Virus record (IMG/VR): IMGVR_UViG_3300012018_000002
Location: 48,766-112,765 of that record
Direction: 5' to 3' (one strand)
Origin: a virus
Taxonomy: Duplodnaviria; Caudoviricetes
DNA: 64,000 bases
Shown: positions 4,971 to 63,209 of the stretch, piece after piece
Position numbering within the stretch: position 1 is the stretch's first letter
Layout: every line of letters begins with the position of its first letter
Position numbers and translations under genes: made by a program
The notes under the pieces: generated by a model
Seen by the model: the letters and a program-made list of their open reading frames with translations, nothing else
Databases searched by the model: none
What the model was told of the DNA's origin: nothing

Positions 4971-5100
4971 CCAGTTTTGGGGAACTTATCAACTATCTGA
5001 AAAAAGAATTTACAACTATCTTAAAAGACATCCAGAGGATGAATATTTTAAAGAATTATTCCAGAAAATAAAACAACACAATAAATCACGAAAAAAATGA
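4828..5100 (+). CDS. HU/IHF-like DNA-binding protein
   Basis: ELVEKVSKKTGYS...LVKLCI...FWGTY pattern of the HU/IHF N-terminal helices and FGTF-like strand. Confidence 0.6.
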   Translation: MAILFQELVEKVSKKTGYSEQLVKLCIRHKFSWLRQQMTSSEEVAIFDQFWGTYQLSEKRIYNYLKRHPEDEYFKELFQKIKQHNKSRKK

Positions 5101-5666
5101 GTGAAATAATGAATGAAGATATTTCTTCAAAAAACTATGATGAATTCGACTTTCCAGAAGGGTCAGAAAAAGAGCAAGAATATTTAAGAAAAAAACAAGA
5201 AGAAGTAGATACTTACAATCGAGAAATTACTAATTTCCATCCTTTTCTGAAAGAAAGAAAGTTTGTAGAAGGGAATATAATCGTAAGGTTATTTAAAATG
5301 GACATGGTAAAAGAGATAGAAGTAATGGGACAAACATCTCTTATTAGAGCTTACTCTAAAATGAAAGTTCCTAATGGTCATGATGAACATGGTAAAGAAA
5401 AATTCAAACATGTAGAAAATTTATTACCATATAAATTTGAAGGTGTAATTGCAGGATTTGATACTAGTTTAGACAAACCATTCTTAAAAAAAGATTTAAA
5501 GGTTCAGTTATCTCCTTTTAACATTTTGGATTATATTTATTATCCTGATAGAGAAAAAGAAGATGAACCTTGGACTGCTGAAGATGTAAAAAGAGGAAAA
5601 AATGTTTTACCTAATTTTGAAGGTTATGTTAAGATTAGAGCAAACATGATAGAGAGTTATGAATAA
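5097..5666 (+). CDS. Putative divergent, enlarged GroES-like co-chaperonin
   Basis: Overlaps the groEL start; strand pattern GNIIVR...EGVIAG...LKVQL...YVKIRANMI resembles GroES with long insertions. Confidence 0.45.
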   Translation: MSEIMNEDISSKNYDEFDFPEGSEKEQEYLRKKQEEVDTYNREITNFHPFLKERKFVEGNIIVRLFKMDMVKEIEVMGQTSLIRAYSKMKVPNGHDEHGKEKFKHVENLLPYKFEGVIAGFDTSLDKPFLKKDLKVQLSPFNILDYIYYPDREKEDEPWTAEDVKRGKNVLPNFEGYVKIRANMIESYE

Positions 5667-7188: not shown

Positions 7189-7204
7189 AGAAGAATTTTA
7201 ATAT

Positions 7205-7280
7205 TGCGAGTGGGTGAAATGGATTAATCATTCTAGGCTCATAACCTACGAGATAATGGGTTCGATTCCCATACTCGCTA
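7205..7280 (+). tRNA. tRNA-Met (CAT), initiator-like
   Basis: GCGAGT/ACTCGC acceptor with 1:72 mismatch, loop CTCATAA, T-arm ATGGG-TTCGATT-CCCAT. Confidence 0.85.
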
Positions 7281-7354
7281 CATTGCAAAGAGATAGCTAA
7301 CAAATAGACATTGGAGGTTTCCAGTTATTGATAAAATTTGGAATCTGCTATCTC

Positions 7355-7428
7355 ACATACATTGACTCATTGGCGTGATAAGTGGTCTCCAAAACCATGA
7401 TTTGCAGGTTCGACTCCTGCTCTCTGTG
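7355..7428 (+). tRNA. tRNA-Trp (CCA), degenerate 5' half
   Basis: GTGGT-CTCCAAA-ACCAT anticodon arm and GCAGG-TTCGACT-CCTGC T-arm intact; acceptor ACATACA/TCTCTGT has 2 mismatches; weak D-stem. Confidence 0.6.
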
Positions 7429-46500: not shown

Positions 46501-49500
46501 TGAAGATGAAACACCTGATGGTAAAGAAGAAGATAGAGGTGAAGATGTTATTTTATCAGGTGACTTTGGAAGTGAATGGTTAGCACATACTAAAACTACA
46601 ATTAAAGAAGTTCAACCTATTGAATCTAAGGTTACAACTAATAGTAGTAATCCTCAATACAATCAAGGTGTTGCAACTACTAGTTTAACTGTTGACTACA
46701 ATAGTCAAATTGTATGGAATGATGAATCTAAAGGAAGAAATCCTGAAAACAATTATGACTTAGAATATTTATATAGTGGTGAAGCTAATAATGATACTAC
46801 ATTACAACTAGAAGTAGATACTACTTATGGTGGTGATAATGTATTTCCATATACTGAAGTTCCTGTTATCTTGGTTTCTAAAACAAGAAAAGAAACTTCT
46901 GACTCTCCTGTTGCTGGTAGATTAGGACATTTACCTACATTAGTATTTAAAAAATCTATTAATGAATATGATATTGCTAGAACTACATCAAGTTCTACAG
47001 CTTATGTATATTGGAGTTTAGAGGATTTATTGAAAGAGAAATCTTCTATATCTAAATTACCTGATAGTGATATAAATAAAATGACCTTATTAGAAGAGGT
47101 TAATAAAGCTATTGATGTCAGAAGAGGTCAAATCAAGTCTTATCTTGATATGAGAAAAGCTTTACTTGGTAGAGATGGTGACTTTACTTTAGAAGAAAGA
47201 AAAAACGCAACTCCTGTTAAAGTAATTAATCATGGTCAAACTTCTGGTATAGTTCAAAGTAAAAAAGAATTTGAACCTGCAGCTAATGTATTTGAAGGTA
47301 ATAATGCTTTTGGCTTTGGTCAATATACTCTTGCTATTTCTCATACTCCTACTGTATTAGGTTGGGGTGGTTTAACTGAGGATGGATTACCTGTTAATAA
47401 AATTAGTTCTTTAGGTGTATCGGCAGCAATCAGTGGTGATATAGGTTCTGTTTACCTGGTTTCTCAAGTAGATGCTAAAGGTGGTTATATTCCTTTAAAA
47501 CTTGTTAAAGCTACTTTAACTGATTTATCAGAAGATAATCAGAACAAGGTAGTTGATAAGATAATTTCGTTAATTCAAGAGTATAGAGATACTGCTACTT
47601 TATCTCCTAAAGAAGCTACAGCTAAAGCTAAAGACATTGAAGCTCAAATAGCTCAATTGTATATGATTACTAGAAGTGGTTCTGAAAGAGGACATGGTAA
47701 CATTGTTCTTGACAGTCGTTTATACTATGATGCTAAGAACCCTAAGAAGGGAGCTAATGGTTCTTATTTTGCTATTAGAACTACTGATGGTGGTAATATT
47801 ATAGAACATAGATTTTACTATCGTTCTAAGTATAAAGATGGTTATGCTAATATAAAAGCTGATAGACAAGGTAATGCTCAATTCACTTATCAGAAGTTTG
47901 TTAATGGTTCATTAAAGGATACTAGATATAATGTAGGTAAAAAAACAGTTGCTGGTGCATTAAAGATGATACCTTTCAATGTATCTACTAATCTTGTTAA
48001 TACTAAAGACTATGTTCCACTAGTTAAGTTTGATGATGAATTAACTGACTATAATACTTTTGCAATGAAATACTTGCTTAAAAGTAATAACAGATATATT
48101 AAAAAATCTGATGGAACTAACTTTCAGATTAATGGTAAATCTATGATGTTTGGTAATCCAAACTTTAGAATATCATTAGTTGCTAGAGATTCACATAAAG
48201 CTGCTCCACAAGTTTCTACAGATAAAAAAGCAGATATAGAAAAATTAGTTCTTGGAAAATTTGCAATTGAAACTAAAAAAGTTGTAAGTAGTAAAGGTCC
48301 TTCAAATGGTAGAACTATTGTTAGAAGTACAAAAAGAAAAGTAAGCTCCGACGGAGAAGTTTTAATAATAACTCCACATAATACTTTTGAAGACACTGGA
48401 GAAACTCTAGCTACTAGAGCAATAGACATTTCTTTTGTGGAATTTAAAGAACATTACTATCCTTTAATGGCAGAAGAACAAATAGAACTATTTGAAGCAG
48501 CACTAGGAGAAAATGTAACAAGTATTCAGTTAAAGGAAATAAGAATTGGATTAAAAGATAGTCATCTTAAAGGACAAATTAATATAGATGTTTTAGTCGT
48601 AGATGATTTAGGTGTACATGAAAATGGAGCAGTCTTAAATAGAAAATTAACTGATGCAGAATTAGCTGCTTTAGAAGGTAAGAAAGAAACTACTAAAGAA
48701 ACATTAATAACAGAATCTACTGTTACTGATGATGTTAATCCTATGTCAGAAGGTTTGACTCAAAGTGAACTTACTAGTATAGATAGATATTTATCACAAG
48801 AAAACCTTGGTAATGAAGAAGTATTGTTTAAAGGTATTATAGATAAGTCTCAATATCTTAAAGAACAATATGTAGCTTTTAAAAACAAACAAGAATATAA
48901 TAAAGCTTTAAGAGGTTTACTTACAAGATTAAAAAGAACTTCTGATTTAAGTTTAAAAAATATATCTCAACGTATAGTTGCTGACCCTAAAATACAAAAG
49001 GAAATAGATTATGAAATATTTAGAGGAGAAGATTTGTTAGATAATACTATTATTATTGATAGATTATTAGAGTTTGATTATGTTCCAACTGAACTAATTC
49101 CTTTAATTAAACTATTAAGGAATAAAGTAGGACAGACAAGAAAAATGGAAAGATTTGATGAAGATTATATTTATCAATTCTATGATGTTGCTACTAATAC
49201 TATATTTGTATCTTATGAGAACTTTGATGATAGAGAATCTTTTGCTAGAAGTTATGTTCATGAGTTACTACACCATTATACTTTTATGTCTTTACATGCA
49301 CCTGAGACAGAACAAGAGATTGAATTCTCAAATAATATAAGACAATTATATATAGAATCAGTAAATAAAACAAAATTCATTTCAGAACATTATGGTTTTT
49401 CTAATATATATGAATTTGTTTCAGAAGCTCGTACTAATAAAGCATTTCAAAAAGAATTAAATAAAAAAGGATTATGGGAAAGTGTTATAGATTTTATTGT

Positions 49501-52500
49501 TGAGTTATTAACTGGTGAGAAAAGAGAATCAAAAAGATTTAGAGAAACTAAAAAACTTGTTGATAACTTTGTTAAATATGTAAACGATAACAATATCAAT
49601 AGAATTTATACTGGAAATGAAACTCTTAATTCTATTAAAAGACCATTAAACCCTAGCTTTACTGTAACTCAAGAAGCTGATATTATTAATAGTCTTACAG
49701 GGATGCTTATGAATATAAGTGTTGATAATCCTGATGTTCCTATATATGATTATCAAGATATAGATGAGAACTCTTTAGAAACTTTATTAAGACAAGAAAT
49801 AGAACAAAGAATTAGTTTACTTGAAAGATATAAAGAGTTAGATAATATAAAAATCTTTGGTGATGGTATGAGTAGTTATAGAGATAACTGGAAAAAAGTG
49901 TTAGATACATTTGAACCAGAAGGAGATAACTATGATGATTATCCAGGTTTATTTAGAAAAGTAATTGCTAATCTTGCTTCTAACTATGGATATAAAATTA
50001 AAAAAGGTAAAGTAACTTACAGTGATGCTCAAGACATTACTAAAGAGTGGGATGCTTCTTTCTTAAAATATAACCCTAAAGATAAAGTGGATACCCTGAT
50101 AAAAGCAGAGTTTCTTACAATGCTTGACAATGAACAAAATGAATTGTTAGGTATTCCTCTTTATATTAACTTTAATAAAATATTCCCTGCAGTATTAAGA
50201 AGATTGAATAACAAACCTACTATTGCAGAGAAAATACATGAGTTAAGAAGAATGGCTATTCTTTATGAGAATGAATTAAACGTTGGTCAAGCATTTAGTA
50301 AAATAATTGCTAAGTTAGAAAATACTTCTGATGTTCAATTAAGAAGTAAGTTTTATCAATCGTTTAATAGTTATTCTCATAACCAAATGAGAACAGTAGT
50401 AGAAAGAACTGAAGATGGTTTTATTACAAGAAATATAGTAGTAACTTCTAAAGACTTTAGAAAAGAGTTAGTAGATATGTGGAAAACTAATTATCATACT
50501 AAACTTGAACAGATATTACTTTCTACTAATAACTCTATTGAAAGCGTAAGTAATTACAATAAATCAAAAAGAGCTGAATATACAAGAAAAGTAAATACTA
50601 CTTTTGCTGCTATTGAAAGAGCAACTACAGAGCAAGAAATTTCTAATGCTCTTAATCCTTTATTAGAAGTATTCCAGGATATGGGTATTACTTTAAACAG
50701 ACCTGAGCTTGTAAGAAGTGCTATTATGCATTATATTACAGACCCAGAGAATTTACAACTTGCTATGGAAATTGCTAATACTGAAAGTAAAGTAGTAGCG
50801 ATGAAAACCATTATGACTAGTTCTAAATTTGGTTTAACTGAAAATACATTTACTTCTAAGAAAGGTATATTTGCTATAATGGAAAAAGGTCAAAGTCCTT
50901 TTGCTGGTGATACTGCTGGTTGGTTTAATAATATAGCTGATATTATATCTCCTTTCTTTTTAGAAGAGTATGATAATATTACACTTACTATTGATAATGA
51001 AAAACAATGGGTTATCAATACACCTAATCAGTTAGCTATTTTAATGTCTAAGTTGAATAGTAAGACAGAAGCTAGTGAAATACTTTCTAACTTTGGTTAC
51101 TTAGGTAATAGCAACTGGATTTCTTTAATGATGAAAAATGGTGAACCAAACTTTGCTGAGATAGTTAAGTTTGATTATGCTATGCATCAAGGAGTTATGT
51201 TGGGTGATGAAGGTGTTGCTTATGAAAGATTAAATGATATACATAGAACATTATCTTCTATTTCACTATTCTTAGATAGTTATCAAAGAGGTATCAAAGA
51301 CCATTCAAGATTTTGGGTTAATATGCCATATGAAGCTGATAAAACTAGACATTATATTATGAATGTTCCTAAGTTTGCTTCATCTGTTAATGAGCTTGGT
51401 AAATATGAATTTGTATCTGGCAATCCTTCTTTTGATGCATTACTTAAAACAGTAAAACAAGAAAGAGATAACATATTAAATCTAAGAGCTAAACTACAAG
51501 AGGTAATTGATTTACCTAGAAATGCTAATGGAACTTTAAACTTTAGTAAAGAGATTGATGTGTCTGGTTTAACTCCAGAACAAAGAACAACTTATTTAGT
51601 TGAACCTTTACTTGTAAATAGAAAAGGTGATAAATATACTCTAGGTAATGGTCTTAAATTTAACTTTATTAAATCACTGAATGAGTTTGCAGAAAATGAA
51701 TTATTCAATGATAGTATATTAAAACAACACTTAACTGATTATATTAAACAATCCTATACTGAGTTTAGAGATAAACTTATTGAGGAAGGTTTAATATACA
51801 TAGAAGAAGGTATTGTAAAAAGTGATTATATAAGTGAACAAGTATTGATTGATGGATATGATAGAAGTTTAAATCATATGTTAATTGATTACTTTGTAAA
51901 CTACACTATTGCTCAAAGAGAAATAAAAGGTTTACTAACTGGATTTGACGGAGAATATAAAAATATATTCGATGAAGGTAAACGTATGGCTCAATATGGT
52001 GCACCTTATCAATCTTTATATACAGAATATATTAATAAACAATATGCAAATCTTGTAATAAGAGATGTTACATTAAGTATCCCTGATGAAGATTGGAATG
52101 CATTAGCTGAGAGAACTGGATTAACTCTTGCTCAAACTAAAAAACAATTTAGTTTCTTAGATAGTATAGATACTAATGATGCTCAAGGTTTCTGCACAGT
52201 TAAAAGATATAGAGAAATTTTAATGGGTGCTGGTAGGTATCCTTGGTCAAAAGAGAAATTAGATATTTTAGATAGAATAGAAAATGGAGTTGCTACACAG
52301 CTAGACTTTAAATCTATTATGACTCAACCATTAAAAGGATTTTATTACAAAAGAATATTCGATGAAAAATTAAATACACATAGGTCTATTCAAGTTAAGT
52401 ATGCTTTATTCCCTCTAACTAAACAGTTTACTGAAGGTTTACAATTAGATGCATTAAGAGAGAAAGCAGAACAGCTAGAACAAGACTCTAAATTATCTCT

Positions 52501-55500
52501 GGAGATTATACCAGAATCTGCTTTTAAAGTAGGTAGAGTAAACGTAAACAAATTACATGATGACCAAGGTAATATCTTAGATGACTTGTCTAGTATTACT
52601 AAGGATAGTCTTGTATTGTTAGATAATGATGGTTGGGGTATTCAACAAGATGTTCCTGCTCACGAACTTGACCATGACCAAAAATTAGGTGTTCAGATTG
52701 CTAAGTTAGCTTTGTCTAACATTAATATGTCTAATATTTATATGTTTAATGGTAAAGAAATAACAGGTAGAGAATTAGTTGATATATTTTCTGAAGCTAC
52801 TGTTAAGAATTTAAATGAAGACTTAACAAAAGTAATTAATAGTATTATAAACGATGAAGATATTAGAAGAAGACTAGAAGAAGAAATAGATGAATCAGGT
52901 AAACCATATAACTTAAAAGGTTTATTAGAAACACAAAACGGTAAGTTTATTCTTCCTTTAGCATTTAATATATCTTCTAAAGAATTCCAACCTTTACTAA
53001 AAAGTATATTCAATAAAGTAAGAGACCTTACTATGCCAGGTGGTCCAATGATTCAAGTTTCTGATGTATTTATGAGACCTAAAATGAAAGCTCAATCTAC
53101 AACAGAAGGTATTCAGTGGATAGATGGACATGATAAGAAACTTAAAATGCATATAGAGAATAATACTATATATGCAGAATGTGTAATTCCTCCTGGGACA
53201 GAGAAATTTTTTATAAACGGTGTCCTAGATATTAATAAGATACAAAAAGAATGTCCTGAAGCATTAGAGATGATAGGCTATCGTATTCCTACTTCTTCTA
53301 AATCTTATTCTATGGTTCTTAAAGTTGTTGGTTTTAGCAATAAAACAGTAGCTGGAGAAAGTATTATAGTTCCATATCAACTTATGAAACACATGGGATT
53401 TGACTTTGACGTAGATAAGATGTTTACTATTCATAGAAGAATAGGTATTAGTGATGGAACTAATATATCAAAAGGTAATATAGTTCCAAAAGGTAACTTT
53501 TTTATATTTGATTCTCCTGACCCTAAAACAGGTAATGAAAGATATATGAGAGATAATCAAATCTTTGATGTATTAAAAACTATTATTCAATCACCACATC
53601 ACTTCAATGAAGTAGTAGCTTCTGGTGAATTTAAAAGATTAGAAGATGCTGCAGAAGAATATGCACTTTCAAAAGTAGTTCCTGATGGTAATACAATTAC
53701 TGGTCAAAGAATTATGAATGAGAGAAATATGATGGCTGTAGTTATGAAAGGTGTATTTGCTAATAACAATGGTTTTATACCTATTGCTCAGATTATCAAT
53801 TTAAAAAGTCTTCAAAGCTTAAATGTTAAGATTGATGGTAAATCATATAACTTAGACCAGTTTGGTAAAATAGGAGATAGTTTTAAAAACTTAGATGGTG
53901 AAGATATAACTGCTCTTTGTGGTGAGTTTGTAAATGCTATCATGGATGCTGCTAAAACTCCTACTACTGCTTTGATTAACATTAACATGTATACAGCTAA
54001 CGTAGCTTTTACTATGATTGCTATGGGTCTTAATTTTAAACAAGTAGCTGCTTTCATGCAACAACCTATTATTAGAAAAGCTACTCAATTAGATACTAAT
54101 GCTGATGGATACTTTGTTCGTAGACCTTCAGGTTTTTCACCTAACTTAGAGGCTAGAAAATTACTATTTGAATTCTTTGAATTAGACTCTTATGGTATAG
54201 ATAAGTTTAATAAATACTTACATGATGCTGCTATAGTTAAAGGTAAAAAACAAAATAAATATATTGAACCATTTAAGTATGATGAGAAACAAGTATATGA
54301 AATAGATATAAATGAGTTAAATGAATATTACAGAAATGAATTTTTACCTAAAGACATAACTAGTAAAAAGGATAAGTTAGAATGGTTAGTTGATAACTAT
54401 GACTATGTTGTAGCTCAATTAAAAGTATCTAATGTATATGGAGCAATGAATAGAGTAGCTACAGCTTATGGACAAGCTAATAGTGCTTTAAGTTCTGACA
54501 GGAATAATGATTCTAATCTTAACACTATACATAGAATGGATGAGACTAGAGAAAAGTTATCTAACCCACTAACTGCCATATTGTCTTCTCAGGATTTAGA
54601 TGGTGTTTATCATGAAGGTATAGAAGCTATATTTCAATCTAATACTCCTTATCCTATTGCTAAAGCTTATTGGGATATTGATGATGCTGCAATTAAATAT
54701 TTAACTACATCTAGTAGATTCTTTTTACATTCACCGAAATATAGAAATGCATTTAATAGATTATTAAAAAGTATTGGTATAACTAACCTGGATAAAGAAG
54801 GTGAAGAACAAATGTTCTTTAAATTTAGTAATGCTGTAATGGCTTATATAAATAGCCAGAATGGTATGTTATCTGGAGTAAATGTTAATTATTATTTATC
54901 TCCTGAGTATATTAATAAGTTTATTAAACAAAGAAAGATAGCTATTAAAAATGGATTTACTGTATTTGAGAAGTTTGTTATTAACCAAGAACCTATAGAT
55001 AGAGCTAGGTCTGGTGGTATCTCTATGATTACATTTGATACAGAAAGAATGACAGATTTCTTGAAAGATGAATACTCTGCTCAGTTATCTGATTTCTTCT
55101 TTAATAAATATCCTGAAGATATTAGCGATGAAGAGTATGACATGTTGTCTGAGTTTGCATTTGATTTACTATACTATCAGTTTGCTACTACAGGATTTAT
55201 TCCTACTAAGAGTTCTATTAATAGTATTATACCTTATGAAATGTGGTTAAGTCCTTCATTTGGTATTGCAGAAAACATTCAAAGTCATACTTTAATGGAT
55301 GCTACTCATGTAGTAAATAATGAATTTATTAAGATGTTTGTTCAACATAATGCATCTAATAAGAGAATAGCATTTGATGCTTCTTACTTCTTTAATGAGA
55401 AGTCTAGTAGAAAGAGAATGTCTACCTCATTAGTTAATAATAAAAACTTACCTGAGAACCATGTAATCATGAGTTCTAATAAACAACTTATTAAGTTTAA

Positions 55501-57463
55501 TAAGAAAACTAAGATACCTAAAATTAAAGAATACATTTCTCGTAGAATTACTACAGAAGTAAATGGTCAAAAGATAACTAATGTTCATTTGTTTGAATTT
55601 GTAGGTTTAGTAGGTAACTCAGGTATATGGGTTAGAATACCAACTAGGGGTATTCCTAACAAAGCTTTTGAATACTCTAACAAAGAAACTTCATTCCCTG
55701 ACAATATGACAGAGAAATCAGTAGATGATTTATTAGTTGGTATCAAAAAGACTTTTGATAACTTTGCTTTATATAATGGTGTTAATTTCACAAATTCTAT
55801 TGAGGAAGAGACTGAATATGAAGATGTTAGTGAAGAAAATGAAGTATCTTTAGAGATGGAAAATCAAAATATATATAGTCAGTTAGGACAAAAAACAAAG
55901 TCTAAAAATATAGTATTTGAAGATTGGAGTAAACTAAAAAATTATAAAAATCCTATTTCTCCAATAAGTATAGTTTCTACTAGAATAGTTGGAACAGATA
56001 AACATTTTGGTAATCCATTTAGTAGTGATGAATCTGTATTAGCTAAAAACCCAACTTTAATCAAAACAAATTCTACAAAAGAAAGTGTTGAAAAATATAT
56101 TGATTGGGTTATTAATTCAAAAGAACCAAGAGCTGAATGGATAAGAAAAGAGTTAAAATCAGGAGAACATAAAAATAAAGCAATACTTTATTATAAAGAA
56201 CTAAATGAACCTTCTCATGCTACTGCTTTAGATTATTTGATTAATAATTATAACTGGAATGAATCAAAAAGAGTATCTTGGAATTCAGTAAAAGAAAGAC
56301 TTCAATCTTCTCCTTTACATAAAGATATTACTGAAGAAAATGAAGTATCTTTAGAGATGGAAATAGATACCTCTAAAAAAATTAATATCTATGCAGGAAC
56401 TAATGAGAATGCTGAGTTAAGTAACTTTGCTGTTAGACCTTTTAGTTATAAGGGAATAACTTATAAGACTGTGGAAGGAGCTTTTCAAGCTGCAAAATTA
56501 GATTATGCTGAAAAATCACAATCTTATAATGATGAGGGAATAACTACTGAAGAATACAAACAAAATTTTTCTGATTTATCTGGAAATCTTGCTAAACAAC
56601 AAGGTAGAACAATAAAAGGTTTAAACACAAAAACTTGGGATGCAAACTCTTCAAGAATAATGAAAGATTTATTATTAGAATCTTTTAAGCAAAATCCACA
56701 AGCTTTACAAAAGTTATTAGCTACAGGAAATGCTGAACTTACTCATACACAAGATAAAGGTAAATGGGGTAAAGAGTTTCCTAAGTTATTAATGGAAGTA
56801 AGAGCTGAACTTGGAGGTTCAAAAAAAGTATCTTTAGATATGAAAATGAATAAATATAATCCTATTCCATTACAAGATAATTTTACAAGAGAATCAGTTA
56901 AAAAAGACTCTAATTATATTTATCTATTTACCGATAATGCAGGTAGAACTTCTGGTTCAAATAAAATTAAACCTAATTGGTATACTGATAAATATGGTAT
57001 AGAAGGCAACTATCCTACTATGACTCAAGCAGTAATAAGAGGATTAGAAAATGCTTTTCCTATTACTACTATGGTAGATGATAAAAGAACTCAATGGACA
57101 GATGATAGGTTTGAAGAATATAAAAAAATAATAGATAGTGAAATTGAAGAAATTAAAACTTCTATTTTAGATGGAGATTTTAAAGGAGTTAAGTTTTCAG
57201 CTAATAATCCATTTGGAGAAGGTAATATTTCAAAAATGAAATCATCTGCTCCTAAAATTTGGAACTACATGAATGAAAAACTTAAAGAAATAGGAATTGA
57301 TAATACAGGAATTAAACCTATCATAATAAGTAATAATATTAATCTATCTTGGAATTCAGTAAAAGAAAGACTTCAATCTTCTCCTTTACATAAAGATATT
57401 ACTGAAGAAGTATGGAATACACTTCCAGAAAATGAAAAACAAAAAATATTAGATTGTTTATGA
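43550..57463 (+). CDS. Giant virion RNA polymerase polyprotein (N-terminal membrane-like region, zincin HExxH, two-barrel RNAP, C-terminal effector cassettes)
   Basis: DAQG (~52178), YRIPT (~53279), catalytic DFDVD (53402-53416); HELLHH (49259-49276); NADAR-like domain 56357-56820. Confidence 0.93.
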   Translation: MASLNELRKDTITPAVTRGSSGLNVFSTLDPADYSGQLGDTLYGNKTSLDIQRANAQSNWESAGNFLARGVGKALLSVPETAGYILDIPGWVGANKDYDNVLSTWAREGKEFLDEELPEYSRDTIGHDSFNPASFGWWMRNGDSVIESLGYFVPGMALGKGVTAALKLGKEASVAANIARGMNRFSKLSTTAERIAEAGGTLTAAIASNHAEGMQIAAQTYKDVYTSVVNNVGDAKAKELASEAAGKVVRGNLVMAVPEFFEMRLMFKNFDSLRRGANFSKNWIGRNAPELLKQAGLEGGEEWYQGFIERESKRTANIEAGVIEDDKSNVYSRIIDYITSDEGMTEGFLGAIGGLGFGAIGGAMNMNKSARDRKRGIDIISQNQSALKKIMQSQGQLIDMMGKEVDKNNPTAVENAIKGIFLNRAWLAAEAGTFSQLEEYVESMQNASQEEIEKNGWDRKTIAERVPQFKKLLSQVEDVYNKVNSLGGSMSNEFVGKMANHLLKQMAAQEGLAQVENDLQLAYADLLKTIPNKSTDFLSLHPLLLERVILEQFAKAYKDEKWRKDNNLNYSPDVEKTLIDRLLSLEVDLDEKSKGVDTGKVLDNEVANTTISKIITEKVRNLILYEQEKSDYNFYSNPRNREEWELKNEQTSTETQEVAEEKPVDKKETKKEVPTETVDSIIKQREQEIEDIETLIEAQQVKFENTPGADIDAHNKKITELRDKIAKVRKNAEDRISKLKKVEDDGDLKGNKTSIKNKNQEETQEFLNLAELAKEDILNVFDSFERKEDVGESKHKGNAVTIKIKNSVIDEIVIWKSSKDIGFNLKSGKSSVQITDEKKLLQLIAEKLTEDKRKAERKPKPVITNEPVTSITVTPEILQTLEEGSVLQVETANDSIITLIKTKEGFKLERVLYQNGISVPEVPSNPEIKLDKYLIAASSISQKDYDILIATLNAGAIAEQFVGKITKIKNGKVEKTQDAEGNVVEDETPDGKEEDRGEDVILSGDFGSEWLAHTKTTIKEVQPIESKVTTNSSNPQYNQGVATTSLTVDYNSQIVWNDESKGRNPENNYDLEYLYSGEANNDTTLQLEVDTTYGGDNVFPYTEVPVILVSKTRKETSDSPVAGRLGHLPTLVFKKSINEYDIARTTSSSTAYVYWSLEDLLKEKSSISKLPDSDINKMTLLEEVNKAIDVRRGQIKSYLDMRKALLGRDGDFTLEERKNATPVKVINHGQTSGIVQSKKEFEPAANVFEGNNAFGFGQYTLAISHTPTVLGWGGLTEDGLPVNKISSLGVSAAISGDIGSVYLVSQVDAKGGYIPLKLVKATLTDLSEDNQNKVVDKIISLIQEYRDTATLSPKEATAKAKDIEAQIAQLYMITRSGSERGHGNIVLDSRLYYDAKNPKKGANGSYFAIRTTDGGNIIEHRFYYRSKYKDGYANIKADRQGNAQFTYQKFVNGSLKDTRYNVGKKTVAGALKMIPFNVSTNLVNTKDYVPLVKFDDELTDYNTFAMKYLLKSNNRYIKKSDGTNFQINGKSMMFGNPNFRISLVARDSHKAAPQVSTDKKADIEKLVLGKFAIETKKVVSSKGPSNGRTIVRSTKRKVSSDGEVLIITPHNTFEDTGETLATRAIDISFVEFKEHYYPLMAEEQIELFEAALGENVTSIQLKEIRIGLKDSHLKGQINIDVLVVDDLGVHENGAVLNRKLTDAELAALEGKKETTKETLITESTVTDDVNPMSEGLTQSELTSIDRYLSQENLGNEEVLFKGIIDKSQYLKEQYVAFKNKQEYNKALRGLLTRLKRTSDLSLKNISQRIVADPKIQKEIDYEIFRGEDLLDNTIIIDRLLEFDYVPTELIPLIKLLRNKVGQTRKMERFDEDYIYQFYDVATNTIFVSYENFDDRESFARSYVHELLHHYTFMSLHAPETEQEIEFSNNIRQLYIESVNKTKFISEHYGFSNIYEFVSEARTNKAFQKELNKKGLWESVIDFIVELLTGEKRESKRFRETKKLVDNFVKYVNDNNINRIYTGNETLNSIKRPLNPSFTVTQEADIINSLTGMLMNISVDNPDVPIYDYQDIDENSLETLLRQEIEQRISLLERYKELDNIKIFGDGMSSYRDNWKKVLDTFEPEGDNYDDYPGLFRKVIANLASNYGYKIKKGKVTYSDAQDITKEWDASFLKYNPKDKVDTLIKAEFLTMLDNEQNELLGIPLYINFNKIFPAVLRRLNNKPTIAEKIHELRRMAILYENELNVGQAFSKIIAKLENTSDVQLRSKFYQSFNSYSHNQMRTVVERTEDGFITRNIVVTSKDFRKELVDMWKTNYHTKLEQILLSTNNSIESVSNYNKSKRAEYTRKVNTTFAAIERATTEQEISNALNPLLEVFQDMGITLNRPELVRSAIMHYITDPENLQLAMEIANTESKVVAMKTIMTSSKFGLTENTFTSKKGIFAIMEKGQSPFAGDTAGWFNNIADIISPFFLEEYDNITLTIDNEKQWVINTPNQLAILMSKLNSKTEASEILSNFGYLGNSNWISLMMKNGEPNFAEIVKFDYAMHQGVMLGDEGVAYERLNDIHRTLSSISLFLDSYQRGIKDHSRFWVNMPYEADKTRHYIMNVPKFASSVNELGKYEFVSGNPSFDALLKTVKQERDNILNLRAKLQEVIDLPRNANGTLNFSKEIDVSGLTPEQRTTYLVEPLLVNRKGDKYTLGNGLKFNFIKSLNEFAENELFNDSILKQHLTDYIKQSYTEFRDKLIEEGLIYIEEGIVKSDYISEQVLIDGYDRSLNHMLIDYFVNYTIAQREIKGLLTGFDGEYKNIFDEGKRMAQYGAPYQSLYTEYINKQYANLVIRDVTLSIPDEDWNALAERTGLTLAQTKKQFSFLDSIDTNDAQGFCTVKRYREILMGAGRYPWSKEKLDILDRIENGVATQLDFKSIMTQPLKGFYYKRIFDEKLNTHRSIQVKYALFPLTKQFTEGLQLDALREKAEQLEQDSKLSLEIIPESAFKVGRVNVNKLHDDQGNILDDLSSITKDSLVLLDNDGWGIQQDVPAHELDHDQKLGVQIAKLALSNINMSNIYMFNGKEITGRELVDIFSEATVKNLNEDLTKVINSIINDEDIRRRLEEEIDESGKPYNLKGLLETQNGKFILPLAFNISSKEFQPLLKSIFNKVRDLTMPGGPMIQVSDVFMRPKMKAQSTTEGIQWIDGHDKKLKMHIENNTIYAECVIPPGTEKFFINGVLDINKIQKECPEALEMIGYRIPTSSKSYSMVLKVVGFSNKTVAGESIIVPYQLMKHMGFDFDVDKMFTIHRRIGISDGTNISKGNIVPKGNFFIFDSPDPKTGNERYMRDNQIFDVLKTIIQSPHHFNEVVASGEFKRLEDAAEEYALSKVVPDGNTITGQRIMNERNMMAVVMKGVFANNNGFIPIAQIINLKSLQSLNVKIDGKSYNLDQFGKIGDSFKNLDGEDITALCGEFVNAIMDAAKTPTTALININMYTANVAFTMIAMGLNFKQVAAFMQQPIIRKATQLDTNADGYFVRRPSGFSPNLEARKLLFEFFELDSYGIDKFNKYLHDAAIVKGKKQNKYIEPFKYDEKQVYEIDINELNEYYRNEFLPKDITSKKDKLEWLVDNYDYVVAQLKVSNVYGAMNRVATAYGQANSALSSDRNNDSNLNTIHRMDETREKLSNPLTAILSSQDLDGVYHEGIEAIFQSNTPYPIAKAYWDIDDAAIKYLTTSSRFFLHSPKYRNAFNRLLKSIGITNLDKEGEEQMFFKFSNAVMAYINSQNGMLSGVNVNYYLSPEYINKFIKQRKIAIKNGFTVFEKFVINQEPIDRARSGGISMITFDTERMTDFLKDEYSAQLSDFFFNKYPEDISDEEYDMLSEFAFDLLYYQFATTGFIPTKSSINSIIPYEMWLSPSFGIAENIQSHTLMDATHVVNNEFIKMFVQHNASNKRIAFDASYFFNEKSSRKRMSTSLVNNKNLPENHVIMSSNKQLIKFNKKTKIPKIKEYISRRITTEVNGQKITNVHLFEFVGLVGNSGIWVRIPTRGIPNKAFEYSNKETSFPDNMTEKSVDDLLVGIKKTFDNFALYNGVNFTNSIEEETEYEDVSEENEVSLEMENQNIYSQLGQKTKSKNIVFEDWSKLKNYKNPISPISIVSTRIVGTDKHFGNPFSSDESVLAKNPTLIKTNSTKESVEKYIDWVINSKEPRAEWIRKELKSGEHKNKAILYYKELNEPSHATALDYLINNYNWNESKRVSWNSVKERLQSSPLHKDITEENEVSLEMEIDTSKKINIYAGTNENAELSNFAVRPFSYKGITYKTVEGAFQAAKLDYAEKSQSYNDEGITTEEYKQNFSDLSGNLAKQQGRTIKGLNTKTWDANSSRIMKDLLLESFKQNPQALQKLLATGNAELTHTQDKGKWGKEFPKLLMEVRAELGGSKKVSLDMKMNKYNPIPLQDNFTRESVKKDSNYIYLFTDNAGRTSGSNKIKPNWYTDKYGIEGNYPTMTQAVIRGLENAFPITTMVDDKRTQWTDDRFEEYKKIIDSEIEEIKTSILDGDFKGVKFSANNPFGEGNISKMKSSAPKIWNYMNEKLKEIGIDNTGIKPIIISNNINLSWNSVKERLQSSPLHKDITEEVWNTLPENEKQKILDCL
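55831..56363 (+). repeat. 32-bp exact direct repeat A (55831-55862 and 56332-56363)
   Basis: TGAAGAAAATGAAGTATCTTTAGAGATGGAAA (EENEVSLEME); degenerate third copy at ~56826-56846. Confidence 0.95.
56274..57409 (+). repeat. 65-bp exact direct repeat B (56274-56338 and 57345-57409)
   Basis: TATCTTGGAATTCAGTAAAAGAAAGACTTCAATCTTCTCCTTTACATAAAGATATTACTGAAGAA (SWNSVKERLQSSPLHKDITEE). Confidence 0.95.
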
Positions 57464-57813
57464 CAATACAAGAATTTATAACATCTCTATTTGAGATTAG
57501 AATTACTGGTCATATAGCCCACTTCCAAACAAGAAGCTATGCACAACACATGGCTTTAGGTGAGCTATATACTGGTATAGAAGGTTTAACAGATTCATAC
57601 GTAGAAGCTTACCAGGGTATTAGTGGTATTATTACAAGTTATCCTCAAATCAAAATAGCAGAGGGTGTAGATATGACTAAATACTTACAACTTAAAGTTT
57701 CTATGTATAGAGATTATAGAAAGGTAGTTAAAGAAACAGAATTACAACAAAAGGTAGATGACATCATCGAGTTTCTTAACACAATAATTTACAAACTTAA
57801 ATATCTAGGATGA
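57454..57813 (+). CDS. Ferritin/Dps-like four-helix protein (DUF5856-like)
   Basis: HIAHFQTRSYAQHMALGELY...DSYVEAYQG...DDI...YKL. Confidence 0.75.
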   Translation: MFMTIQEFITSLFEIRITGHIAHFQTRSYAQHMALGELYTGIEGLTDSYVEAYQGISGIITSYPQIKIAEGVDMTKYLQLKVSMYRDYRKVVKETELQQKVDDIIEFLNTIIYKLKYLG

Positions 57814-60800
57814 CACATTGTGTAAATATAAATCATAATTCAGTAAAGGAATTCTCTGAAGAGCTTAATCTTCCTAAAGCTGTAATAGCTGCAAAGATTG
57901 CTCTTTGGCAGGAGAGTAATACTATGGATAGATTTCCTAGTAAAGAAGAACTTTTAGGTAATGTAAACTTAGAAGGTAATGTAGAAGAAGAACTTAAAAA
58001 AACAGGTTTCTTTTCTAAACACAATGGATTATTATTTATTAAAAAACATTTTTATGTAGATGCTATTAAGGCTATTGCTAAGTTTAATAAAGAAACTCCT
58101 GGTCTTGTAAAGGTTAATAGAGCTAATAACTTTGGTAAAGATGGTAATGACATATTTTATGTTAAAATAAATGAAAATTTATTAACTTTAAAATCTCCTA
58201 GCCAAGGTTCATTGTTTAGTTCAAAAATAGATTATTCTTTAAAGAGTATTGAAATAATTAATAATAACTTACAAAAAATTATTTCTTGGTATAAACTTTT
58301 AAAAAATACAGATACTTTTTTTAGTAAACTTAATAAAGATTTACAAATACCAAAAGAACAAGTTGAATTAATAAAACAAGAATTAGAAAAAACAAATTCT
58401 ATAGAAAAAACTTTAGTTAACCTACAAGCTAATTATAGTTACACTGTTGAGATTAATACTACTAAAGGAGCTGCTTATAGAGTTGAAAATACATTAGAAG
58501 GTGGATATGATGATATTGAAATAAACTCAAAAGAAAAATTTTATAATCAAGTTTGGGAAGAAGGTATATTAGAACCTCATAGTAAAGAGTTTAATGATGA
58601 AGTTGAGAAAAGATATATTAATGCTAACAGTAAAGCACCAAATTCTTCTTATTACTCTAACTTAACAGTTCCAGGTGGAACTAACTATACAGAGAATGAA
58701 ATAGCTACACCAGCTATTACTCCTTCTATTAAAGGTCATGCTCAATTTTCTACAGATAAAGGTATTGGATGGTTTAGAAGTGATGATAAAGCGGAAGGGG
58801 GTAATTATGATAAACCACAATCAATGCCAGATTATTTAGATGACACTGATTTTATTGTCGAAGGTACACCAACTAGAACTCGTAGAATACTAGAAGTCCA
58901 ATCTGATTTATTTCAGAAAGGTAGAGATAAAGAAGATTTAATTAGTAGAACTTTAGCCGAAAAAATCGAAAGTTTGTCTAAAGAAGAGGTAACTAAGAAA
59001 ATTAAAGCTTTAGAAGATGTTGAACCTTTTGGATTAATTGGAAATCAGGAAGAAGAATTAAACTTATTAAAAAGAAAACAATCTGGAGAAATCCTTGTTA
59101 GTATAAGCAAAACTGAAAACCAATTCCTTCAACTTCTAAATAAAGATAACAATTGGGTAACATTCTTTGTTAAATCTATTATACAAGATAGTGCTAAAAA
59201 AGGATATGAAAAAATATTATTTCCTTTAGGAGAAACTATTGCTAAAATAGAACAATATGGAGAAGCTGCTAAAATATATGCTAAATTATTAGCTAAAAAA
59301 CAGAGGGGTGAAAAATTAACTGTACAAGAAGAAAATGCAGCAAAAGAATATGAAGAACTAAATCAAAAAGCTGTAATTGATTTCTATGAGAATACTGTAG
59401 CTAATATTCTTAAAAAACAAGGATATAATCCAGTAGAAATTACTGATGAATATGGTAATACTTGGAATGAAGTTAGTATAGATGATAAGTCTCTTAAAAA
59501 AATATTATTCTCTACTTCTCAAAATACAGAAAAAAGTGTAGATAAAGAACTTAATAAAATACTTATTGATTTCTTATCTCAGTTTGGTATTAAGGCAGAA
59601 GCTGTAGATAATGTAATGAGAGAAGGTAATTACAATGTATATGCTGTAGCTGACTTTGTTAGAAAAACTATATCATGGGCTAAGGGCTTTGAAAGTGAAA
59701 TACCAGAAGAAGCTGCTCACATGATATTTGAAATGATAGATACTAGTATTAAAGATACTATTATTAATCTTGTAATGAAAACTGAAAGGTTTAAAGAGTA
59801 TAGAGAATCTCACAAAGAACTTTATGCTACTGACAGAGAGTATGCAAGAGAAGTTGCTGGACAAATGTTAGCAGAGGAAATCAAACAACAGAATTCAGGT
59901 CTTATAAGAGAAGCTAATACTTTAACTAATTGGTTTACTAAACTAATTAATTACATTAAGAACTTATTTAAAAAAGGAGATGTATCTAGTCTTGATAATA
60001 TAATAAAAGAAAAACTAGGTGATGTAGCTAAAGATGTATTAGAAGGTAATACTAAAAACTTAAATATAGCTAATTTAGAAAATGAAACTAAATTATTTTC
60101 TGCTGAAACAGACTTAGTAGATAAGCAAATTAAATCTTTAACTCAAAGAAAAGAGATGCTTAATAGAACTAAGAATGCTTCTAACAGAAGACAAAATGCT
60201 TTACAGGCATCTAGGATTAGTGAGTCTATTAAAAAGCTAGAAGCTGAAAAGAATTATCTTACTGTGTTTAAAGTAGCTTACAAAGATTATAAAGAAGCTA
60301 TGTTATTAATCAAAAAAGAAGATATAAATGCAGCTCAGTTAATGAATATCAAAAGAACAATTGATAGGATTATTAACTTAGATAGTTATATAGAAATGGA
60401 TGATGTTAGTGATGACTTAGCTCGTAATTATAAAGAATTAAGAAATAGAGCTACAGAACTTAATAAACTTTGGAATAAAAAACAACTTGAACAAATAGTT
60501 TCATTAAGTGATGAAGAAGGATTTGATTATACAGAAAAACAAATTGTTGCTCCAATAAAAGATATATCAGCAGCTAAACAAGAATTTATATCATTAGATT
60601 CTTCTAATATTCCATTATTAAATATAGCAGCTAGTATTTTTGAAAGTATAAAAAGAGATACAAGAAATAAGTTTATTGAATATAAAAAACAATCTGATGA
60701 AATTAGAGCTAAATATACTGAAGAAGATTTTAAACAAATCTTAGATAAAGAAGGTAGATTGATTGTTCAAACTAAATCAGAATATTTTACTCTTGAGAGA

Positions 60801-63209
60801 AAGATGTTAGCTAGATTTAAAGCATTAATGAGTAGTGCTACTGATGATGCACAAAAAGCTAAACTGTTCTCACAAAGAGCCAAATGGTATATTGACAATA
60901 ACACTTATACACTTACAGAAGAAGGTAAAGAGTTATATGAAGAACATTTACAAAGCATTACTGAAGACTATACTGAAGAAGATGGTTCTATAAGTGCAGA
61001 GTCTAAAAAATTAATTGATGCTTGGGTTACACAAAACTCTCCTTATCTTGGTATTAAATATGCTAATGGTGGTGCTTATACTAGAGGTAATACAGGTTGG
61101 TTTAGATATTTAAGTTCTACACCTGCAGATAAATGGATTAACCCTGAATATAATACAGTTAAAGACAAAGAGGTTTATAAGTTTGTTATTAATACTTTAT
61201 ATGAAGGATTAAAGAAACTTCCACATGCTATGACAGTAGATGTTGGTAACTTTGATAAAGCTATTAATGAAATTATATTTGACTTTAATAGAAGTCCTAT
61301 TGGTTTTAAAAGTGCGTATGAAGGATTAGGTGATTTCTTATCTGATACTTTTCAAACAGTATTAACTGAAGATGATATTAAGGGTATGGAATATGGTATT
61401 ACTGATGAAGAAGGTAATTTAAAACCTATTATTAAACATAAATCAGTAGCTGATATTCAAAAAGAAAGTAAGTTTAAAAATCCTTTAGATTTATTAGATA
61501 AGTTTTATAGTCTAGCTTTAGCTTATGAACATAAGACACAAGCAGAAGATAAAATATGGTTAATAGAAGATGCTTTGAAAAAACAAAAAGCTATTAGACT
61601 TACCAAGGCTAATGTAGAAACTTCAAATACTATAGAAGGAGGATTAAGAAGAGCACAAGAACAATTATTATATAACATTCAAGCTAACTTATATAACAAG
61701 GTAAGAATAGATGAAGACAATGTTACACCTACAGAAAAGGAGAAAAAAGAGTTTGAAGAAGAGTTAGAAAAATGGAGAGAAGCAGTTAAAGAAGCTGTAA
61801 AAAATAATCAACCTATTCCTGAAAAACCTGTATTGAAAAAAACTACTGCAGTAAAATCAATAGATGCTTTAGTTGACTTTACTCGTCTTAACTTATTAGG
61901 TTTAAAACCTTTCTCTGCTATAACTAACTTACTTGTAGGTCTTGAAAGTAATTACTTATATGCTGCTAGAAACAAAGACTTTAGTAATGCTGACCTTAAC
62001 TGGGCATTTAGAATGTTAATGGGTAACGTAGTTAAGTATATGACCTGGGGTAAAGCAGAAATAAGTCCTACAGTTAATAAAATAGCTAATTTAGCTTATA
62101 AGTTTGGTATTACTTCTGAAACATTGGTAGAGGATGCTGATAAGTATTCTGGTAAGTTTACTGCTTTCTTATTAGGTTGGCAATCAGGAGGAGAGTTTAT
62201 TATTGCAAACCAAATCCTATTAGCTAAAATGAGAAGAACTAAAGTTAAAGACTTAACTGGTAAAGAGAGAAGTTTGTTTGATGCATATGATGAAAATGGA
62301 GATTGGAATACTAAAGAGTTTGGTGAACAAAACGAGTGGACTAATGAGAAGTTTATTGTAGATGGTAAAAACACAAGTAAAATTAAAAAGTTCAATGATG
62401 AATTAAAAAAAGCAAGAAAAAGAACTCAAGGTGACTATATAGATGCTATGAAGTTTAAGAGCAAAGTATATGGTAGAGTTCTTATGGTATTTAGAACTTG
62501 GTTGCCTAGAGCTATCAATGAAAGATTTGGTGAGCAAGTTGGAGATGACTTTAAAGGAAGATATAGAACTTATGGAACTTTGATTAATAATAATGCTGAA
62601 CAGATGGGTTATTTAAAAGGAACTTTTTCTTTACTTACTAAGTTCTTGTTAGTAGTTACTTCACAAGCAGCTAATATACCTGGTCTAGGTCACTTAGGTT
62701 TTAAATCCTTAGCTGAATTAACCAGCAAGAAATACGAAGCCCATTTAAAAGAATTAGGTTTATCTGATTTAGATATTGAGAATATGAGAGTAAACGTTAG
62801 AGAAGTTCAGTTTATTTTATACTTATTCTTATTAGGTCTTGCATTAAAAGGATTAGCAGGAGATGACGATGATGAACAACTAACTTATAGTGCTAATATT
62901 ATACAAAGACTATTCCAGGATACTACATTCTTTTATTCATTTAACTCAGCTTTCTCTATTGTAAAAGACCCTATACCTTTATATAAAACAATCCAAGATT
63001 CGTATGATGTGTTAGATAGAACAAAAGCTATCTTATATAATCCTACTCATATAAGAGAGGTAGATACTTATCAATCAGGATTTAGAAAAGGTAAGTCTAA
63101 ATTAGGAAAAGAAGTTCAAGACTTAATACCAATAGTATCTGCTTTCCAATCTACTTTATCTACTATGGAGCAAGTATATGGAGAACAGTCTTATAAATAC
63201 AGCAAATAA
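57810..63209 (+). CDS. Giant ejected cargo protein (polyvalent-type)
   Basis: 1799 aa; GWFR...RRILEVQSDLFQKGR motif, zincin-like PEEAAH, hydrophobic C-terminal helices. Confidence 0.75.
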   Translation: MTHCVNINHNSVKEFSEELNLPKAVIAAKIALWQESNTMDRFPSKEELLGNVNLEGNVEEELKKTGFFSKHNGLLFIKKHFYVDAIKAIAKFNKETPGLVKVNRANNFGKDGNDIFYVKINENLLTLKSPSQGSLFSSKIDYSLKSIEIINNNLQKIISWYKLLKNTDTFFSKLNKDLQIPKEQVELIKQELEKTNSIEKTLVNLQANYSYTVEINTTKGAAYRVENTLEGGYDDIEINSKEKFYNQVWEEGILEPHSKEFNDEVEKRYINANSKAPNSSYYSNLTVPGGTNYTENEIATPAITPSIKGHAQFSTDKGIGWFRSDDKAEGGNYDKPQSMPDYLDDTDFIVEGTPTRTRRILEVQSDLFQKGRDKEDLISRTLAEKIESLSKEEVTKKIKALEDVEPFGLIGNQEEELNLLKRKQSGEILVSISKTENQFLQLLNKDNNWVTFFVKSIIQDSAKKGYEKILFPLGETIAKIEQYGEAAKIYAKLLAKKQRGEKLTVQEENAAKEYEELNQKAVIDFYENTVANILKKQGYNPVEITDEYGNTWNEVSIDDKSLKKILFSTSQNTEKSVDKELNKILIDFLSQFGIKAEAVDNVMREGNYNVYAVADFVRKTISWAKGFESEIPEEAAHMIFEMIDTSIKDTIINLVMKTERFKEYRESHKELYATDREYAREVAGQMLAEEIKQQNSGLIREANTLTNWFTKLINYIKNLFKKGDVSSLDNIIKEKLGDVAKDVLEGNTKNLNIANLENETKLFSAETDLVDKQIKSLTQRKEMLNRTKNASNRRQNALQASRISESIKKLEAEKNYLTVFKVAYKDYKEAMLLIKKEDINAAQLMNIKRTIDRIINLDSYIEMDDVSDDLARNYKELRNRATELNKLWNKKQLEQIVSLSDEEGFDYTEKQIVAPIKDISAAKQEFISLDSSNIPLLNIAASIFESIKRDTRNKFIEYKKQSDEIRAKYTEEDFKQILDKEGRLIVQTKSEYFTLERKMLARFKALMSSATDDAQKAKLFSQRAKWYIDNNTYTLTEEGKELYEEHLQSITEDYTEEDGSISAESKKLIDAWVTQNSPYLGIKYANGGAYTRGNTGWFRYLSSTPADKWINPEYNTVKDKEVYKFVINTLYEGLKKLPHAMTVDVGNFDKAINEIIFDFNRSPIGFKSAYEGLGDFLSDTFQTVLTEDDIKGMEYGITDEEGNLKPIIKHKSVADIQKESKFKNPLDLLDKFYSLALAYEHKTQAEDKIWLIEDALKKQKAIRLTKANVETSNTIEGGLRRAQEQLLYNIQANLYNKVRIDEDNVTPTEKEKKEFEEELEKWREAVKEAVKNNQPIPEKPVLKKTTAVKSIDALVDFTRLNLLGLKPFSAITNLLVGLESNYLYAARNKDFSNADLNWAFRMLMGNVVKYMTWGKAEISPTVNKIANLAYKFGITSETLVEDADKYSGKFTAFLLGWQSGGEFIIANQILLAKMRRTKVKDLTGKERSLFDAYDENGDWNTKEFGEQNEWTNEKFIVDGKNTSKIKKFNDELKKARKRTQGDYIDAMKFKSKVYGRVLMVFRTWLPRAINERFGEQVGDDFKGRYRTYGTLINNNAEQMGYLKGTFSLLTKFLLVVTSQAANIPGLGHLGFKSLAELTSKKYEAHLKELGLSDLDIENMRVNVREVQFILYLFLLGLALKGLAGDDDDEQLTYSANIIQRLFQDTTFFYSFNSAFSIVKDPIPLYKTIQDSYDVLDRTKAILYNPTHIREVDTYQSGFRKGKSKLGKEVQDLIPIVSAFQSTLSTMEQVYGEQSYKYSK

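Follow-up and report, generated by a model that had tools for sequence, protein, structure and literature searches.

A linker-joined array of three predicted ADP-ribose-related modules on a crAss-like phage's presumed virion RNA polymerase, and its natural variants

This study concerns the 3' end of a giant gene in the right-hand 64 kb (64,000 nucleotides (nt), hereafter the window) of the 112,765-base IMG/VR virus record IMGVR_UViG_3300012018_000002, the sample of which is wastewater. The gene is read as encoding the virion RNA polymerase protein of a crAss-like phage, and our analyses revealed that the last 540 of its 4637 residues correspond to three modules, with all the junctions in frame within one open reading frame (ORF). 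The linker-joined three-module array is confirmed as an observation, and its interpretation as a plug-in counter-defence system, put forward in an initial annotation made from the sequence alone, is partly supported. We consider it likely that the protein is a polyvalent cargo protein of the virion and that general or short-homology recombination at conserved in-frame linkers adds and removes its effector modules, the functional reading of the modules being included in this estimate.

The junctions share a short core. The sequence AGTATCTT occurs in frame at 55843, 56272, 56344 and 56827, and TATCTT occurs at the fifth junction, at 57345. The 64-kb window holds 14 copies of AGTATCTT as compared with 6.8 expected, and a count of 14 was reached by no shuffle. 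TCTTTAGAKATG was found exactly three times in 64 kb, each time opening a module, and four of the six matches to AGTATCTTKRRA in the whole 112.7-kb record are array junctions. Two longer repeats accompany the core (Table 1). The two copies of repeat A, 45 nt in length, are 93% identical and include an exact part of 32 nt (55831-55862 and 56332-56363), and a weaker third copy lies ahead of module 3, at 56802-56846. Repeat B, which stands after module 1 and after module 3, is identical at 65 of 65 nt. The ends of module 1 (TCAAAAAGAGTATCTT) and module 2 (TCAAAAAAAGTATCTT) are alike at 15 of 16 positions. Since TCAAAAARAGTATCTT is common to both ends, and the right half of the module 2/module 3 junction matches repeat A, this junction is a hybrid. 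Each module can be written with the unit formula L(E/D)M...SK(K/R)VS, in which neighbouring units overlap at GTATCT and abut at (A)AGTATCTT. The analyses of repeats, core and ORF thus bear out the initial annotation, which had described the module array, the shared core, repeats A and B with an internal copy of the start of the tail, a hybrid junction at 56819-56846 and a common module opening. No shift in G+C content was found at the junctions, and modules and body do not differ in base composition. Promoter-like and terminator-like sites are not enriched at the junctions, in a promoter scan that does not model Bacteroidota promoters. A 12-mer at G000:22634 (minus strand), coding for RVSLD within another gene, looks like a chance occurrence.

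Natural variants were read from the Logan unitigs and contigs of four wastewater or sludge runs: X1, the likely source of the record, and X2, X3 and X4. Unitig depths in the likely source run amount to 12.9 for the body, 10.3 for module 1, 23.2 (double) for repeat B and 11.6 for modules 2-3, and a unitig specific to the junction between the first copy of repeat B (B1) and the second copy of repeat A (A2), at 56309-56361, has a depth of 15.3. Two strains with single arrays would give module depths that sum to the body depth and no B1-A2 unitig; the tandem array is therefore real, and the depths fit a single genome with this arrangement. Near-identical phage DNA was present in three other studies (X2-X4), with 0-4 mismatches per contig and about 99% identity or more, and stretches without cover in these runs were not counted as absence. 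In X3 (wastewater, 2021) and X4 (sludge, 2024), which belong to different studies, the body is joined to module 3. The joint, 55841>56826, drops 984 nt (modules 1 and 2) in frame; the 13 bases AAGTATCTTTAGA fit either side of it, and its flanks carry 0-1 mismatches over 303 and 205 nt. In X2 (wastewater, 2017), a contig with a depth of 12.3 carries another in-frame joint, 55854>57350, made via 13 other bases and reading VSL-DSKTS-WNS. This contig represents an empty site, as only the first and last codons of the unit are kept and there are no modules. A contig with module 1, at a depth of 10.8, occurs beside the empty form in the same run. The two depths sum roughly to the body depth of 22.5, and thus two alleles appear to coexist in that sample.

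The initial annotation had predicted breakpoints at the core, and both joints fall there. The deletion forms that it had expected between the A copies (501 bp) and between the B copies (1071 bp) were not seen in the four runs, the contigs of which drop rare variants; other joints were found instead. Nor did the run data reveal a fixed module set, breakpoints away from the core or artefactual repeats, the findings that the annotation had named as counter-evidence. The X2 strain also lacks 9 nt (3+2+4) at 55781-55792, in an acidic stretch just before repeat A, and has nine single-base differences from the window across the last 1.35 kb of the body.

Beyond these near-identical strains, the modules are widespread and their combinations vary. 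More than 1190 giant proteins carry them, and their partners include a PIF1-like helicase, an AlkB-like oxygenase, ParB, cpYpsA and a kinase-like domain. With the window modules denoted M1 to M3, at least 12 module orders occur among the relatives (M3-M2, M2-M3, M1-M2, M2-M1, M1-M3, M3-M1, M3-M1-M2, M2-M3-M1 and more), in agreement with the variable sets and orders that the initial annotation had anticipated. The modules are 60-82% identical to those of phages with non-aligning bodies, and the closest body is 44% identical. A scan of IMG/VR with peptide patterns from the 687-residue C-terminus and a search there for the exact linker patterns of the window array yielded no close relative, and the protein search yielded no fragment more than 82% identical.

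Linkers are repeated in other lineages as well. An exact peptide of at least five residues is shared between distinct junctions in 7 of 61 non-redundant multi-module relatives; controls average about 3 and essentially never reach 5. In-phase exact repeats of at least 16 nt occur in 18 of the 52 IMG/VR loci with module 1 homologues, about nine of them at module 1 borders. In locus L052 (IMGVR_UViG_3300035182_001043, 3974-7380), seven in-phase copies of the 21-nt linker ACTCAATCATCTACTAGTGTT (TQSSTSV) separate a module-1-like (DUF4326-like) domain, an AlkB-like domain, a NADAR domain, three unnamed domains and a final segment with a PIF1-like helicase. Two further loci, L059 (4413-5930) and L061 (59-910), carry linker DNA identical to that of L052 next to unrelated modules, and the bodies of L052 and L059 are 36.6% identical. 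Three different Ser codons are retained in every copy of the TQSSTSV linker, which points to conservation at the DNA level or to renewal by exchange. The TQSSTSV peptide was found in L052, L059, L061, P0004 and P0126, and EVS-L(E/D)M in the window phage. The GTATCTT core is specific to the window lineage, with other lineages using other linkers, such as TQSSTSV. Apart from these junctions, the module 1 domain is split near residue 91 by an insert in P0013, P0351, L048:4001-4867, L051 and L055-L057, and the insert in P0351 is DUF7831-like; modules can thus not only abut but also nest in another module's loop.

The three modules form a coherent set related to ADP-ribose and nicotinamide adenine dinucleotide (NAD), namely DUF4326-like, NADAR and DUF7831. 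Module 2 matches PF08719 with 52.6 bits (E 8.4e-14; cut-off 35.1) and Phage_30_3 (PF08010) with 34.9 bits, just under the cut-off of 36, and it aligns with E. coli YbiA (2b3w) at E 2.5e-8. Its VEGAFQAAK and AKQQGR motifs align with the ribose/phosphate-binding Glu and Lys, seven residues apart, and with the Lys and Arg of 8bau and 2b3w. At the catalytic Glu/Asp position, the His of LTHT is aligned where 8bau has Glu, and a His here is the mark of phage gp30.3-type NADARs (PMC11543638, PMC11125620). The aligned positions would correspond to the published E43, K50, K75, R79 and E125 (PMC11543638). On this alignment, module 2 would classify as a NADAR of the phage gp30.3/AdfN type. Such phage NADARs (AdfN, T4 gp30.3) take ADP-ribose off DNA and defeat DarTG1 (PMC11825919), and the statement in the initial annotation that NADAR enzymes remove ADP-ribose from guanine, reversing DarT1, is found in the literature (PMC11543638, PMC11825919).

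Module 1 is probably a remote member of the DUF4326 family. Weak DUF4326 matches were obtained for 5 of 14 members of its family (best E 0.006), and, of the 30 named clusters closest to it in the ESM Atlas, 28 lie within a DUF4326-bearing set, with scores of 0.88-0.91. Its relatives in the representative library number 314 at E <= 0.001 and are mostly within giant proteins; its family profile gave no match against the PDB sequences, and tblastn gave none against phage genomes. DUF4326 has been characterised as a rhodanese-phosphatase clade which, in DNA viruses, commonly occurs in fusions with NADAR, Macro and SLOG domains (PMC9503650). Module 3 matches DUF7831 (PF25176) with 35.7 bits (E 8.7e-9; cut-off 27). 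Its AlphaFold2 model, built from a 26-sequence alignment, has a predicted local distance difference test (pLDDT) score of 86.9, as compared with 40 without an alignment, and matches DUF7831 proteins encoded by crAss-like phages and giant viruses as well as by two further phages (E 5e-11 to 1e-5). Foldseek found nothing for this model in the PDB at E <= 0.001. An exhaustive structural alignment (VIA) placed macrodomains in 14 of the top 20 rows, with Z scores of only 3.3-4.7, and module 3 has no Pfam Macro match; a macro-like fold may serve as a lead. Of the families named in the initial annotation, NADAR and DUF7831 pass the Pfam cut-offs, DUF4326 is probable only, and the macro-like part is weak. 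A GGQTG(F/V)D motif (SLOG/'molybdenum carrier', PF12694) forms a separate module in the relatives P0165, P0036 and P0003, directly ahead of their NADAR or DUF7831 modules. DUF7831 is thus not that SLOG domain, and it is the separate module that accounts for cr130_1 and IAS virus proteins being annotated as 'DprA-like' and 'molybdenum carrier'.

The array is followed by a conserved tail. The closest relative, P0003, the body of which is 44% identical to that of the window protein, ends in the same type of tail (46% identical, ...SWANVKDRL...KILECL), and therefore the tail, including its repeat B part, appears to be ancestral. The window protein has only five Cys residues, and one of them, Cys 4636 (57455-57457), is the penultimate residue. 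Among 185 giant relatives, 169 have a Cys within the last eight residues, although Cys makes up just 0.2% of their residues. Judging from these termini, the tail evidently has to stay terminal, with the modules going in ahead of it. The two proteins preceding the giant ORF (689 and 824 residues) contain no Cys.

These observations suggest the following mechanism. By analogy with crAss001, the giant protein with its polymerase motif would be packed in the virion, and the three ADP-ribose/NAD-linked modules lie in frame between the polymerase body and the conserved Cys-bearing tail. The array probably originated by recombination between forms sharing the flanks A, at the end of the body, and B, at the start of the tail. 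In an unequal crossover, the parents would be body-A-module 1-B-tail and body-A-module 2-module 3-B-tail, and the exchange may have taken place within the similar ...KDITEE and ...EDVSEE stretches (17 of 21 nt identical). In the product, the tail start would be present once more, internally, as B1, and would be fused to an additional copy of the body end, A2. In natural populations, gain and loss of modules would continue, either among co-infecting relatives or inside a single genome. The linkers would travel with the modules, and general homology would suffice, with no dedicated recombinase required. Mass spectrometry detected RNA-polymerase-associated giant proteins in the virions of crAss001, and these proteins are presumed to be ejected (PMC10172136); by analogy with crAss001 and phi14:2, the window protein may be delivered with the DNA at infection. 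Its modules could then act in counter-defence, for example by stripping the guanine ADP-ribosylation laid by DarT1-like toxins. A bolder version, which we regard as tentative, is that crAss-like phages keep DNA-selected linkers as portable homology arms, by which pooled enzyme modules would be plugged in, removed and reordered on the injected cargo.

Other explanations of the array have to be weighed against recombination at the linkers. It is extremely improbable that the array is an assembly artefact, a chimera of two strains with different modules. The record is a metagenome assembly, and its exact repeats are longer than common k-mer sizes; however, module 1 and modules 2-3 are each near the body depth in the likely source run instead of summing to it, repeat B has double depth, and a unitig spans B1-A2, where the exact overlap, about 7-9 nt, would not suffice to create a graph artefact at k=31. 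A fixed fusion, in which a single old duplication would have left the repeats behind and the relatives would differ by slow divergence and loss, is in turn improbable. Virion proteins commonly carry domain fusions, and the modules have the base composition of the body. On the other hand, repeats kept exact over 65 nt and 32 nt are too intact to be old, phage DNA that is otherwise about 99% identical or more differs by clean in-frame insertions or deletions at the core, and the X2 variants coexist at depths that roughly add up to that of the body.

The linkers could also be, above all, protease sites that free the small enzymes in the capsid or after ejection, a role compatible with recombination. 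We regard this as unlikely; on this reading, nothing more than recent duplication or exchange of units with linkers would lie behind the DNA identity. In favour of protease sites, one peptide recurs at all junctions of a phage and other lineages have another one, and S-x-E and T-Q↓S, which we take to resemble viral cleavage motifs, offer a lead only. Peptidase processing of polyvalent proteins was proposed by Iyer et al. (PMC5512222). However, outside the junctions the motif is absent from the six large virion or cargo proteins of the window, Pfam and PHROGs revealed no protease domain in the giant protein, and the identity at synonymous sites, over 65 of 65 nt in repeat B and in the Ser codons of TQSSTSV across 37%-identical bodies, points to a cause at the DNA level. 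Another alternative is a dedicated site-specific system, integron-like but in frame, which would recognise the core and insert or excise cassettes. The short core common to all five junctions, the linker DNA kept far beyond its surroundings in the TQSSTSV lineage and the 'empty site' allele in X2 would be consistent with it. Nevertheless, such a system is very improbable: the junctions carry no inverted repeats or attC-like structures, the core differs among lineages, free cassettes and orphan copies are absent from the genome, and the units are flanked by longer plain homologies (32-65 nt), as general recombination expects.

Several points weigh against recombination at the linkers of an injected counter-defence protein. 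A-type and B-type junctions overlap by only 6-8 nt, which, taken alone, could be due to chance, and neither orphan modules nor further copies of A or B were found elsewhere in the 112.7-kb record. The variants are known from short Logan contigs only, which do not phase the whole region, the shorter side of one joint being 30 nt only, and the contigs fit either direction of change, gain or loss. A close relative is lacking as an assembled genome, and a megablast search of 54800-57800 against phages found nothing. The identity of the body as a polymerase rests on one DFDVD motif and the genomic context, and a phmmer search of the whole 4637-residue protein against the PDB sequences matched only YbiA, and not the phi14:2 gp66 polymerase. 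As for the modules, the match of module 1 to DUF4326 (PF14216), at 15.2 bits and E 0.036, is below the cut-off of 25, DUF7831 carries no known function, and one phage NADAR was active in vitro and gave no rescue from DarT1 toxicity in vivo (PMC11125620).

Parts of this picture are already known, namely the polyvalent virion proteins (PMC5512222) and NADAR-based counter-defence of phages. Polyvalent proteins of phages and conjugative elements were described by Iyer, Burroughs, Anand, de Souza and Aravind in 2017 (PMC5512222), and viral NAD/ADP-ribose networks have been surveyed (PMC9503650). Like these, the window protein would be a large, multidomain, virion-associated protein built on a virion RNA polymerase, with variable small effectors predicted to act early. 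It joins at least two unrelated effector domains on one large phage protein, here of 4637 residues, and the domain set varies among related elements, here in at least 12 orders and with extra domains. The two studies, however, used the N4-type polymerase, and 'crAss' occurs zero times in either text; DNA-identical in-frame linkers and variants with breakpoints at linkers are not described, and 'linker' and 'shuffl' occur zero times in PMC5512222. On the present alignments, module 2 would resemble AdfN (T4 gp30.3) and other phage NADARs acting against DarTG1 (Johannesman et al. 2025, PMC11825919; Schuller et al. 2023, PMC11543638) in its Glu/Lys and Lys/Arg residues and its phage-type His, but AdfN is free-standing and expressed, whereas module 2 is a predicted domain fused to a presumed giant cargo protein. 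As in the crAss-like cargo proteins, phi14:2 gp66 (Drobysheva et al. 2021) and crAss001 gp47, gp49 and gp50 (Bayfield et al. 2023, PMC10172136), a giant DxDxD protein stands beside structural genes; in contrast, C-terminal effector arrays, linkers and turnover are not described in the accessible parts of these papers, including Yutin et al. 2021 (PMC7886860).

A parallel from outside these phages is found in the polymorphic toxins, in which an in-frame motif conserved at the DNA level (VENN in CdiA, PxxxxDPxGL in Rhs) marks the C-terminal swap by homologous recombination. The window array differs from them in having several tandem modules, a conserved tail after them and no nearby immunity genes or orphan cassettes, and its modules are enzymes predicted to reverse or process modifications, and not toxins. 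Unlike in integrons, structured inverted-repeat recombination sites are not present at the array borders. In the literature, we found no description of effector arrays on crAss-like polymerases, no paper on DUF7831, and no description of in-frame linkers that are identical as DNA and occur with natural alleles of module presence and absence.

Crassvirales count among the most abundant phages of guts and of wastewater; to our knowledge, how they cope with host defences is largely unknown. The variants reported here provide unusually direct population evidence for module turnover at linkers: across years and places, the presumed injected polymerase of the same phage bears zero, one or three modules related to ADP-ribose. 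The delivery of ready-made counter-defence enzymes with the phage DNA, and the assembly and turnover of polyvalent proteins, thereby become directly testable. A catalogue of many effector domains, DUF7831 and several unnamed modules of L052 and L059 among them, could be drawn up by searching for units flanked by linkers. If the tentative proposal of portable homology arms is true, the linkers would make up a domain-level analogue of gene cassettes and the modules a first-minute counter-defence kit that can be customised by strain.

Table 1. Positions of the array elements and of the two giant genes in the window
Feature	Position	Strand	Basis or remarks
Giant ORF, 4637 residues, read as crAss-like virion RNA polymerase protein	43550..57463	+	DFDVD motif, context
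Repeat A copy 1 (YEDVSEENEVSLEME), end of body/start of module 1	55818..55862	+	Core AGTATCTT at 55843-55850
Module 1, about 141 residues, DUF4326-like; motifs HFGNPFS and EPSHATALDYLI; ends SKRVS	55851..56273	+	Weak Pfam match, ESM Atlas
Repeat B copy 1, in which the start of the C-terminal tail is copied internally ((V)SWNSVKERLQSSPLHKDITEE)	56274..56338	+	65 nt exact
Repeat A copy 2, overlapping the end of B1, start of module 2	56319..56363	+	Core at 56344-56351
Module 2, about 160 residues, phage-type NADAR; ends SKKVS	56351..56833	+	Pfam PF08719, YbiA alignment
Hybrid junction of modules 2 and 3 (SKKVS-LDM), third A-type copy	56825..56846	+	Bases 56826-56838 (AAGTATCTTTAGA) = 55842-55854
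Module 3, about 171 residues, DUF7831, alpha/beta fold	56834..57344	+	Pfam PF25176, AlphaFold2 model
C-terminal tail: repeat B copy 2 (57345-57409), then VWNTLPENEKQKILDCL, stop	57345..57463	+	Kept in P0003
Next giant gene, 1799 residues, probably another cargo protein	57810..63209	+	ORF; only Cys is residue 4 (57819-57821)

The genome context is that of a crAss-like phage. The TerL encoded on this contig shares about 34% identity with the terminases of Crassvirales phages of Flavobacterium, Bacteroides and Cellulophaga, and the upstream neighbour of the giant ORF matches phrog_15100, a virion structural protein. The giant protein contains a single GFDFDVDKM motif, at residue 3285 (DFDVD, nt 53402-53416), and DxDxD is the signature by which crAss-like virion RNA polymerases are recognised (PMC7886860). 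A catalytic DxDxD motif in a giant protein of the transcription block is expected of this polymerase class in Crassvirales genomes; GFDFDVDKM agrees with this, and the best hits of TerL are Crassvirales. The polymerase body has no other match in Pfam, PHROGs or the PDB sequences, which fits the known extreme divergence of the crAss-like virion polymerases (PMC7886860). Between the two giant genes lies a small gene (57454-57813) encoding a 119-residue DUF5856 protein (E 6.6e-21), which overlaps the last 10 nt of the giant ORF.

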